A stretch of 64,000 nt of DNA, taken from Escherichia phage EJP2. The stretch lies in the sequence record OQ411014.1; one strand, written 5' to 3'. Shown here one piece after another: positions 31,453 through 32,970 of this stretch (its first letter is position 1; each line of letters begins with the position of its first letter). The position numbers were made by a program, and so were the translations under genes. The notes under the pieces were generated by a model. That model searched no databases and had not been told where the DNA came from. It worked only from the letters and a program-made list of their open reading frames with translations.

Positions 31453-31488
31453 GGGACATATAAAAAAATATGTCCCTTTTGGGTTTTA
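31453..31488. terminator. bidirectional intrinsic terminator between convergent genes
   Basis: GGGACATAT-AAAAAAA-ATATGTCCC flanked by an A-tract upstream and TTTTGGGTTTT downstream. Confidence 0.65.
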
Positions 31489-32166
31489 AAATTTCCACAT
31501 AGATTTTTGAACATCTGAAATAATCGGACTAATATCTGTAACAACTTGTGTTATTTGGTTATTGTCATACTCTCTATTGAGAGTTAGCATAATGTATCCA
31601 ATAACCGAATAACCATCATTGGCAGAAATAGGGATGGTTACTACAGTTTTATATGCAATATGAACATTGGCATTTTGATTACAAGTAAACTCACTACCAG
31701 CTTCAAAAATGTCTTCACATTCTGAACGAATAGCTGTGATGTTTTCATAATGCACTTTGTTCAACAGTATTTCTTGAAAAATACGTTTATTGATGATAGT
31801 ACTGTGTATCTTATCTTCGATTGGTTCTAAACCATTCCGATTTACCGACGCAACACCAATTTGGCCTTTAAACATATCCGATGTTTCGGAATCTTTACCT
31901 TCTGGTACGAATTTGTATAAAACCACGTTGACAACCTCTTCTTGTTGAGCTAGAATATCCGCAAAACGTGAATTGATTATTGCTGTTTCAGCACTTTCAC
32001 TACTCATATGTGTTTGTACAAAAGGGATAACATCATTGACCAAAAGTTCTTTGATGTTATCAACAATTAATATTATAAAAACACTAACAAATATACACGC
32101 TAGTGATGTTATAAATCGAATGATTTTTTGTTTTTTATCTATATGCCCTTGCATGTCACACCTCAT
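31486..32166 (-). CDS. hypothetical membrane-anchored protein (paralogue A)
   Basis: Track ORF; N-terminal hydrophobic helix; shares YKFVPEGKD block with the adjacent gene; start may be ATG at 32154 (GAGGTG RBS). Confidence 0.55.
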   Translation of the reverse strand: MRCDMQGHIDKKQKIIRFITSLACIFVSVFIILIVDNIKELLVNDVIPFVQTHMSSESAETAIINSRFADILAQQEEVVNVVLYKFVPEGKDSETSDMFKGQIGVASVNRNGLEPIEDKIHSTIINKRIFQEILLNKVHYENITAIRSECEDIFEAGSEFTCNQNANVHIAYKTVVTIPISANDGYSVIGYIMLTLNREYDNNQITQVVTDISPIISDVQKSMWKF

Positions 32167-32885
32167 TAAAAAGATATATAATATCCAACATCACTGGCAA
32201 CCTGGATAGCGATATCTCTGTATTTTTTAGCTTCATCTTCCGATTCAGGTACTTTTAAGAAATACACGCTAACATAACCTTCAATACTGATATAACGGAT
32301 TGGTGCAGATACTAAGTATTTTGCTCCGTCATAAACCATTGATGGGAAGTTGATAGGTGAAAGATATTCATCTCTTGCCTCGTAATCAGGTTTTAAATAC
32401 TCACTTGTAATACGTTGTAAATCAACTGAGTAAATTTTCCCTTTTAGCAATGTATTGGATTGTGCCCGGAAAGCACTGATAGGTAACCAATTTAGATGGT
32501 ACTTATCGTACACCAAGTTAGTTTTCTGACTAACCTGTCCAGTCACTAATACTCTACCTTGATAAAAGGTATCATTATCTGGAACAAATTTATAAACCAA
32601 TATCATCGCAATATCATCTGAATATTTCAATATAAAACGATTTGCACCGTCATTAACACTATTGAGATTTTCAGGAGATATTTTATATTTCGCTGGTTTA
32701 AAAAGTTCACCAGATGTTGAATTGTTGAGTTTATTATCAATATAGGTAGACCATGATTCAGATGTGACGTATAACCCACCCATCAAAATGAAACATGCTG
32801 TAACAACTATTGCCCTTAGAGGGGATAAACTTGAGAATATGTCAAGGATTTTTGTTATCATAGCAGTATCAAAGTCGATCTTCAT
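32166..32885 (-). CDS. hypothetical membrane-anchored protein (paralogue B)
   Basis: Track ORF starts at GTG 32906; first ATG at 32885; N-terminal hydrophobic helix; YKFVPDNDT block. Confidence 0.55.
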
Positions 32886-32970
32886 ATCCGTCTTTATCCT
32901 CTTCACTGTTTTTTTTTATTATGTAATATTATTTACTAAAAAATGCATAAAAATGAGACAGTACGGAGAT

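Follow-up and report, generated by a model that had tools for sequence, protein, structure and literature searches.

What are two genes for paralogous membrane proteins doing on the minus strand, in the middle of phage DNA that is read almost wholly in the other direction? The question is raised by a stretch of 64,000 nucleotides (nt) from Escherichia phage EJP2 (sequence record OQ411014.1), the whole of which is called the window below. Two adjacent genes, here named A (32166-32885, minus strand, 239 residues) and B (31486-32154, minus strand, 222 residues), are the only minus-strand open reading frames (ORFs) among the credible long ORFs of its middle part. A first-pass annotation, made from the letters of the window, had taken them for an accessory cassette and offered three functions: superinfection exclusion, lysis-timing sensing and receptor masking. 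The answer proposed here is that the pair most likely determines when the Rak2-like jumbo phages lyse their hosts. It is probable that A and B are related to the class III holin T of phage T4 and that they act in lysis. A more specific assignment, with A as a T-like membrane protein and candidate holin and B as its non-pore-forming, antiholin-like partner, is tentative and is made by analogy with T4.

The operon and its two proteins

The ORFs as scanned are slightly longer than the genes, running from 32166 to 32906 for A (minus strand, 246 residues) and from 31486 to 32166 for B (minus strand, 226 residues), so that the two adjoin. Homologue starts and ribosome-binding sites place the true starts slightly inside these ORFs, which is likely for both genes. 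For A, the likely ATG at 32885 gives a protein of 239 residues, the same length as the annotated orthologue of Erwinia phage Hallingskeid and dozens of other homologues. For B, the likely ATG at 32154 lies 5 nt past a GAGGTG Shine-Dalgarno sequence and is a start common to homologues; an alternative ATG at 32166 overlaps the stop codon of A as TAATG. Read directly, the junction (32155-32168, minus strand) consists of the TAA stop of A (32168-32166) and GAGGTG, followed by the ATG of B. This leaves 11 nt between the TAA and the ATG, a spacer that implies co-transcription. The layout points to one tightly spaced operon, the translation of which is probably coupled.

The operon faces a gene for a MazG-like protein, and a two-way intrinsic terminator (31449-31480, both strands; 13-bp stem, 6-nt loop) lies between the stop of that convergent gene (31443) and the stop of B (31486). 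On the plus strand the hairpin folds with -17.3 kcal/mol (z -5.1) and on the minus strand with -17.2 kcal/mol (z -6.3); none of 200 shuffled sequences was as stable, and T-runs follow it on both strands. Folding thus confirms the bidirectional terminator of the first-pass annotation, just as the ORF positions confirm two adjacent minus-strand genes in DNA that is otherwise almost entirely plus-strand. A weak hairpin picked up inside gene B by a pattern scan (32082-32105) was taken as a chance match.

The paralogy of A and B, first suggested by a YKFVP(E/D) block common to both, has also been corroborated. BLASTP aligns the two at 26% identity over 121 residues (E 3e-5), and when profiles of the A and B families are compared with hhalign the probability is 96.4% (E 1e-9) over 176 columns, the membrane helix among them. 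Reversed-sequence controls reached scores of 14-23 over no more than 40 columns. These comparisons argue that A and B are true paralogues, distant and ancient. The YKFVP(E/D) block corresponds to strand beta-1 of the soluble domain.

Each protein has a single strongly hydrophobic segment near its N-terminus on the Kyte-Doolittle scale (residues ~24-42 in the 239-residue form of A, ~14-32 in the 222-residue form of B), and in each a soluble domain of about 180 residues follows. AlphaFold2 agrees with this simple anatomy, which the first-pass annotation had recognized. The model of A was built on 34 homologues and has a predicted local distance difference test score (pLDDT) of 79.4. It contains a helix at residues 7-18, a continuous helix at 22-56 that comprises the membrane and bridge segments, an alpha/beta domain and a long C-terminal cap helix. 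The model of B (pLDDT 61.3) has the same outline minus the first helix. Structure prediction had been proposed as a check on the soluble domains, and in both models the domain has a GAF-like alpha/beta fold. A is therefore modelled as an amphipathic helix (residues ~7-18), Arg24 at the membrane face, one membrane helix, a long bridge helix and the GAF-like domain. B is modelled as a 12-residue basic tail (MQGHIDKKQKII-R13), one membrane helix and a GAF-like domain with Cys146 and Cys158.

Which way do these proteins face? The N-terminal tail of B carries a charge of +4, and R13, C20, C146 and C158 are invariant in the alignment of its family. The basic N-terminus and the cysteine pair of the soluble domain fit an N-terminus on the inside and a C-terminal domain in the periplasm. 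We infer that the soluble domains of both proteins are periplasmic and their N-termini cytoplasmic. Classic GAF domains (PF01590, PF13185) are cytoplasmic ligand sensors within larger signalling proteins, whereas the GAF-like domain of A and B is predicted to be periplasmic, stands alone on a signal-anchor helix and has no ligand-binding residues that were identified. A and B lie below the Pfam gathering threshold for GAF (PF01590/PF13185), and several of their distant relatives give sub-threshold Pfam GAF matches. Searches of Pfam, NCBIfam and PADLOC returned nothing meaningful for either protein, and a profile search of PDB sequences found nothing.

Comparison with the T4 holin T

The link between this pair and lysis begins with the holin T (gene t, class III, PF11031, chain T of structure 6pxe; relatives in T5-like and Proteus phages). 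[quoted passage not shown] Two of its residues, F22 where the cytoplasmic helix ends and R34, are each needed for hole formation in T4 (PMC12162936). Removal of the first 22 residues yields T(delta22N), which does not permeabilise (1.3% of cells stained vs 67%), yet still clusters and forms large complexes (PMC12162936). The bridge helix is essential, whereas the globular domain is dispensable for holes and has a regulatory role (PMC12162936).

The AlphaFold2 model of A contains the same elements as described for T, and the models of both A and B match annotated T-type holins in Foldseek. Matches of the B model in BFVD include a class III holin of Proteus phage Stubb (6.9e-4), and the soluble domain has the fold of the solved T domain (6pxe_T). 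The class III layout of one membrane helix, a short cytoplasmic N-terminus and a large C-terminal domain is found in both proteins, with the topology being predicted.

Profile comparisons lead in the same direction. The T family was represented by a profile of 32 diverse PF11031 proteins, and the T4 gp t sequence used was identical (100%) to that in the T4 record. An exhaustive profile search with a joint A+B alignment gave 58 representatives, nearly all of 190-260 residues and most matching over their full length; 47 of the more distant ones made up an alignment of the wider A/B family. T aligns with this wider family at 91% probability (E 1.1e-6); the 183 aligned columns are collinear and begin at the membrane helix and run on to the C-terminus. 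With the A family the probability is 38% (E 3.3e-4, 181 columns), with A and B jointly 46% (E 2e-4, 170 columns) and with the B family 0.8% (E 0.075, 82 columns). Reversed controls scored 13-23 over no more than 40 columns, compared with 34-46 in the real comparisons.

The alignments are also sensible at the level of residues. VYSFRPKN of T is matched by VYKFVPDN of A, and YMYSCPYF...G.I by YLVSAPIR...GYV. The cytoplasmic helix of T (SDILFGVLDRL) is aligned with the amphipathic helix of A, and R34 of T with Arg24 of A. Within the A family, 27 of 34 sequences have F at the position that matches F22 (position 17), and all 34 have R or K at the one that matches R34 (position 24). A thus has the amphipathic helix, the aromatic residue and the arginine. 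B has an invariant arginine, but the helix is missing.

A and B are not simply T under another name. Their sequence similarity to T falls below the thresholds of Pfam and HMMER, the disulfide cysteines of T (C175 and C207) are not conserved in A, and B has a different cysteine pair. Our reading is that A and B lie outside the curated T family and inside a broader membrane-GAF superfamily that contains it, the relationship being remote but genuine. A further difference is that the Rak2-like phages have two specialised paralogues, a duplication not described in T4 or T5.

How might such a pair work? The complete T layout of A (a helix ending in an aromatic residue, a basic residue, the membrane and bridge helices and the GAF-like domain) makes A the probable hole-former by analogy with T, and its holes would release or activate the endolysin. 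B, which also has the membrane helix, the basic residue and the periplasmic domain, and yet no more than 12 residues in the cytoplasm, would be the natural counterpart of T(delta22N). It would co-assemble with A through the membrane helix, the GAF-like domains or both, and would thereby delay or tune hole formation. This putative antiholin-like role, in which B inhibits or modulates A, is suggested by the paralogy of the two, by the tightly spaced operon that they share and by the short N-terminus that B has in common with T(delta22N).

There are precedents for parts of this scheme. Near-copy holin/antiholin pairs are known from phage lambda (S105/S107) and phage 21 (S68/S71). In its proposed role B can be likened to the T4 antiholin RI and to lambda S107, in being a membrane-tethered periplasmic protein that is co-expressed and associates with the holin without forming holes. 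However, B is not homologous to T4 RI (97 residues), and it differs from the antiholins of lambda and phage 21 in being a full-length paralogue with its own gene, rather than an isoform made from an alternative start. T4 has RI and RIII, whereas according to the RaK2 paper no homologue of either was identified.

Relatives of the pair and rival roles

The 58 representatives split cleanly into two types. A-type proteins have 17-28 cytoplasmic residues with an amphipathic helix, ..(I/L)xK(I/L)L(E/D)x(F/L).., followed by K or R before the membrane helix, and none or one cysteine beyond that helix. B-type proteins have 8-14 mostly basic residues before the membrane helix and two (rarely three) cysteines in the soluble domain.

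One clue to function is where distant A-type genes are found. In a Mu-like prophage of Helicobacter, the A-type gene comes after the tail-fibre genes and is followed by an 80-residue membrane protein (phrog_1322), two small ORFs and a CHAP endolysin, with an Rz-like spanin nearby. In a 172-kb IMG/VR contig (L009), it is followed by a secreted 157-residue protein, an Rz-like spanin, a lipoprotein, a phrog_1322 protein, a second membrane/coiled-coil protein and an Rz1-like lipoprotein. In an 8-kb prophage end, it lies between the tape-measure gene and a phrog_1322 protein, after which come an Rz-like spanin, a lipoprotein, an M15 endolysin, a second, embedded spanin pair and a GH24 lysozyme. All three readable A-type contexts are lysis cassettes, which supports a lysis role for the family. 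IMG/VR held no loci for the distant B-type members P0236 and P0229 or for the further A-type members P0228 and P0245, a scan of GTDB genomes gave nothing, and tblastn with the distant metagenomic members found only the same Rak2-like genomes again.

Two side observations concern these distant relatives. The secreted 157-residue protein of L009 (5752-6225), encoded directly downstream of the A-type gene, carries a signal peptide, and its C-terminal motif, IIYPIKD..ITGILILGY, resembles GAF beta4-beta5. The protein could be an RI-like soluble partner, but the similarity is not significant, nor did a comparison of it as a B-like paralogue give a significant match (hhalign 0.6-1.4%). Among the BFVD matches are two membrane-GAF proteins with nearby accessions (A0A1B4XWY0 and A0A1B4XWY6) from Tenacibaculum phage pT24, an unrelated marine jumbo phage. 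Perhaps paired membrane-GAF paralogues recur outside the Rak2-like clade.

The small membrane protein phrog_1322, annotated as 'moron/membrane protein', is found together with the A-type gene in each cassette (L008 5408-5650, L009 6790-7191 and L014 3663-3911). It may be a holin that has escaped recognition, or it may act with the membrane-GAF protein as its partner. What if A and B do belong to the lysis system and neither forms the pore? In this hypothetical scenario both would be periplasmic GAF-like proteins that regulate, as sensors or as antiholins, a separate small holin with its gene in another part of the ~360-kb genome. In the three lysis cassettes, which are unrelated, the two-helix phrog_1322 protein would be such a holin; ligand sensing is a classic function of GAF domains, and the globular periplasmic domain of T4 T is purely regulatory (PMC12162936). 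However, A retains the parts that T needs to form holes: an amphipathic helix whose last residue is aromatic, a basic residue at the membrane face, and the bridge helix. The 64-kb window has no phrog_1322-like ORF. Nor has a holin been described for the Rak2-like clade: the group has been reported to lack one, and the CBB paper, although it describes an endolysin that has an N-terminal membrane helix, does not name a holin. A separate pore-former is thus an unlikely explanation, and a hole-forming A is preferred.

Another question is whether the pair is an optional extra. A nucleotide search of phage genomes with the 2-kb region gave no match, and relatives were found at the protein level only. 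A and B both match the same 71 phage records, all of them cultured Rak2-like jumbo myoviruses, among which are 121Q, PBECO4, phAPEC6, RaK2, K64-1, GAP32, CBB, Serratia phage BF, Yersinia phage fHe-Yen9-04, Salmonella phage Munch and Xanthomonas phages XaC1 and XbC2. The MazG-like neighbour is found in 72 records, the same 71 and one Vibrio phage. Gene order was read in six relatives (Hallingskeid, 121Q, CBB, phAPEC6, RaK2 and GAP32), and the common order is nrdA, nrdB, small genes, MazG, B and A on the opposite strand, (a membrane protein) DHFR, RNase H and Dda helicase. The presence of the pair in all 71 records, together with its constant position in the six relatives, indicates that it is core to the Rak2-like clade and not accessory. 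This comparison across relatives had been proposed by the first-pass annotation, and it did not bear out the accessory cassette: in every cultured record with the MazG-like neighbour, except that of the Vibrio phage, the two genes are there as well.

It is against this background that a non-lysis role in host interaction, such as superinfection exclusion or receptor masking, has to be judged. Periplasm-facing, membrane-anchored proteins are typical of exclusion systems, with Imm and Sp of T4 as examples, and A and B are predicted to be anchored in the same way. The pair also stands on the opposite strand with its own promoter region and terminator, and B evolves fast. The closest relative is Hallingskeid, with 79% identity for A and 54% for B, and identity to the Salmonella and Escherichia coli relatives is 56-57% for A and 31-38% for B, so that A is clearly the better conserved. 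Nevertheless, the pair is in all 71 records of the clade, at the same position in the relatives read, and has no match to exclusion families or in PADLOC, where the best hit (Cas3d, E 0.029, 10.9 bits) was taken as chance. Fold, layout, profile similarity and the gene neighbourhoods of the distant relatives all point to lysis. Such an accessory role is quite improbable. Of the three functions first offered, lysis-timing sensing came close to the evidence, whereas nothing was found that points to exclusion or receptor masking.

The B orthologue has a peculiarity in most Asteriusvirus genomes from E. coli, where it is split by a +1 frameshift at ...MYKGQ|FGLV.... The split is seen in 121Q (~6710-7370), phAPEC6 and at least 25 other Asteriusvirus records. 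Both halves in 121Q, gp39 (with the membrane helix) and gp38, are conserved, including the cysteine pair, and in phages JNE01 and Turkey5 the B orthologue is unsplit. The frameshift may be programmed, or the truncation may be one that the phages tolerate.

Could A and B instead be genuine virion components, for example membrane-inserting ejection proteins or tail-associated proteins that enter the host envelope? Annotation seems to say so. In PHROGs, A belongs to phrog_14938 ('membrane protein'), and the match of B is to phrog_21209 ('virion structural protein', 1.3e-46). Orthologues are labelled structural in phage A4, Serratia phage BF and 121Q, the 121Q record applying the label to gp40 (A) and gp39 (the N-terminal half of B), with no source that could be consulted. 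There is also one experimental observation, in that ORF145w of RaK2 was detected by mass spectrometry of virions (CBB supplementary Table S1). However, the B orthologue CBB_310 is annotated as structural and yet is absent from CBB's own mass-spectrometry identifications. In the supplementary comparison of the CBB study the CBB and GAP32 mass-spectrometry columns are blank, and only that of RaK2, for ORF145w, is positive. The structural label for CBB therefore traces to the single RaK2 detection.

How much weight should that detection carry? The protein was not found in the virion proteomes of CBB (54 proteins) and GAP32 (49 proteins) and does not appear in the main text of the phAPEC6 study. 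PhoH and a single-stranded DNA-binding protein were in the RaK2 dataset too, and the CBB authors left both out as non-structural. Membrane fragments can carry abundant late membrane proteins along when phage is purified, and contracted phAPEC6 particles have been seen bearing a piece of host membrane; co-purification of a late, abundant inner-membrane protein is a plausible explanation of the RaK2 result. A GAF-like domain on a signal-anchor helix is, moreover, no known virion module. A virion role for the pair is very improbable. Homology to virion proteins was the sign by which the first-pass annotation proposed to recognize an error of its own, and it was found in name only: B matches phrog_21209, and for CBB the label traces to one RaK2 detection that the CBB and GAP32 proteomes do not repeat.

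The view that A is a holin and B its antiholin-like partner has several points to answer. The direct profile probability between T and A is only 38-46%, and that between T and B 0.8%. Pfam PF11031 matches neither A nor B (hmmscan, E<=1), nor any of the 47 distant relatives, and an HMMER profile of 32 T holins gives A an E-value of 0.81. The model of B is of low confidence (pLDDT 61.3). The N-terminus of A has a net charge of 0, so that charge alone does not settle its topology. The neighbours of the pair in the Rak2-like genomes read are genes of nucleotide metabolism and replication, not lysis genes, and in the distant cassettes phrog_1322 could be the real holin. Some orthologues (121Q gp40/gp39; phage A4) carry the structural label, and RaK2 ORF145w was seen in virions. 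Finally, the pair would be expected to be expressed late, and no expression-timing data were found for it.

Upstream motif, neighbouring genes and meaning for the clade

Gene A and an operon on the plus strand are separated by a divergent intergenic region (32886-33006), in which an AT-rich, promoter-like motif, AGTAAATAATATTACATAATAAAA (32914-32937, minus strand), lies 29-52 nt 5' of the ATG of A. In an alignment of upstream regions the motif is kept as GTAAATAC(N)TATAAAA in Hallingskeid, 121Q, phAPEC6, RaK2, CBB and GAP32. We infer that it is a promoter, possibly one with a timing class. It is not enriched across the 64-kb window. Nor is the T4 late-promoter motif TATAAATA enriched there (3 found vs 5.6 expected), and it is absent 5' of gene A. 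A similar motif occurs at 48711-48728 (plus strand), 5' of a 189-residue ORF at 48748 (plus strand) which, by size and position, is probably the equivalent of a Hallingskeid gene labelled virion structural protein. The general form, GTAAATA-N(2-4)-TATA(A/T)A, may be a promoter class specific to the clade.

The operon on the other side of the intergenic region begins with a multi-pass membrane protein of 125 residues (33007-33384, plus strand), divergent from gene A and overlapping the start of DHFR. It is kept in CBB (CBB_312), GAP32 (GAP32_307) and 121Q (gp41), is unannotated in Hallingskeid, and has no family match in Pfam or PHROG (E>0.05). The wider flanks (29046-31443 and 33372-35693, plus strand) form a block for nucleotide metabolism and replication, with NrdB, a MazG/PRA-PH-like pyrophosphohydrolase, DHFR, RNase H and a Dda-like helicase. 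Genes that bear the label 'virion structural protein' are scattered through the block in relatives, and so the PHROG label is a weak guide to function in the Rak2-like clade.

What does this mean for these phages? Several of the Rak2-like jumbo phages (121Q, PBECO4, RaK2, GAP32, CBB and relatives) have been proposed for therapy. In the literature searched, no paper was found that links class III holins with GAF domains or describes the paralogous pair; for fEgEco12, a 2026 record and paper label the A orthologue 'holin' without analysis. The labels 'virion structural protein' and 'moron/membrane protein' are probable mis-annotations that spread through PHROG-based annotation.

As remote relatives of T, A and B give the clade a concrete holin candidate, and they would extend class III holins, known mainly from T4-like and T5-like phages, to membrane-GAF proteins of jumbo phages and of prophages, including that of Helicobacter. 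They also suggest a form of holin regulation that has not been described, in which the regulator is a paralogue without the trigger helix. A bolder version of this idea is speculative and rather doubtful as it stands. Class III holins might be the tip of a much larger, so far unrecognised superfamily of phage proteins that joins a membrane helix to a periplasmic GAF-like domain, duplicated in the Rak2-like phages into a two-gene lysis clock. A would then be the pore-former with the trigger helix, and B the naturally N-truncated, disulfide-bearing partner that co-assembles with A and keeps it shut until the GAF-like domains sense a signal in the periplasm. Lysis inhibition in these phages would come from holin paralogues instead of RI and RIII.

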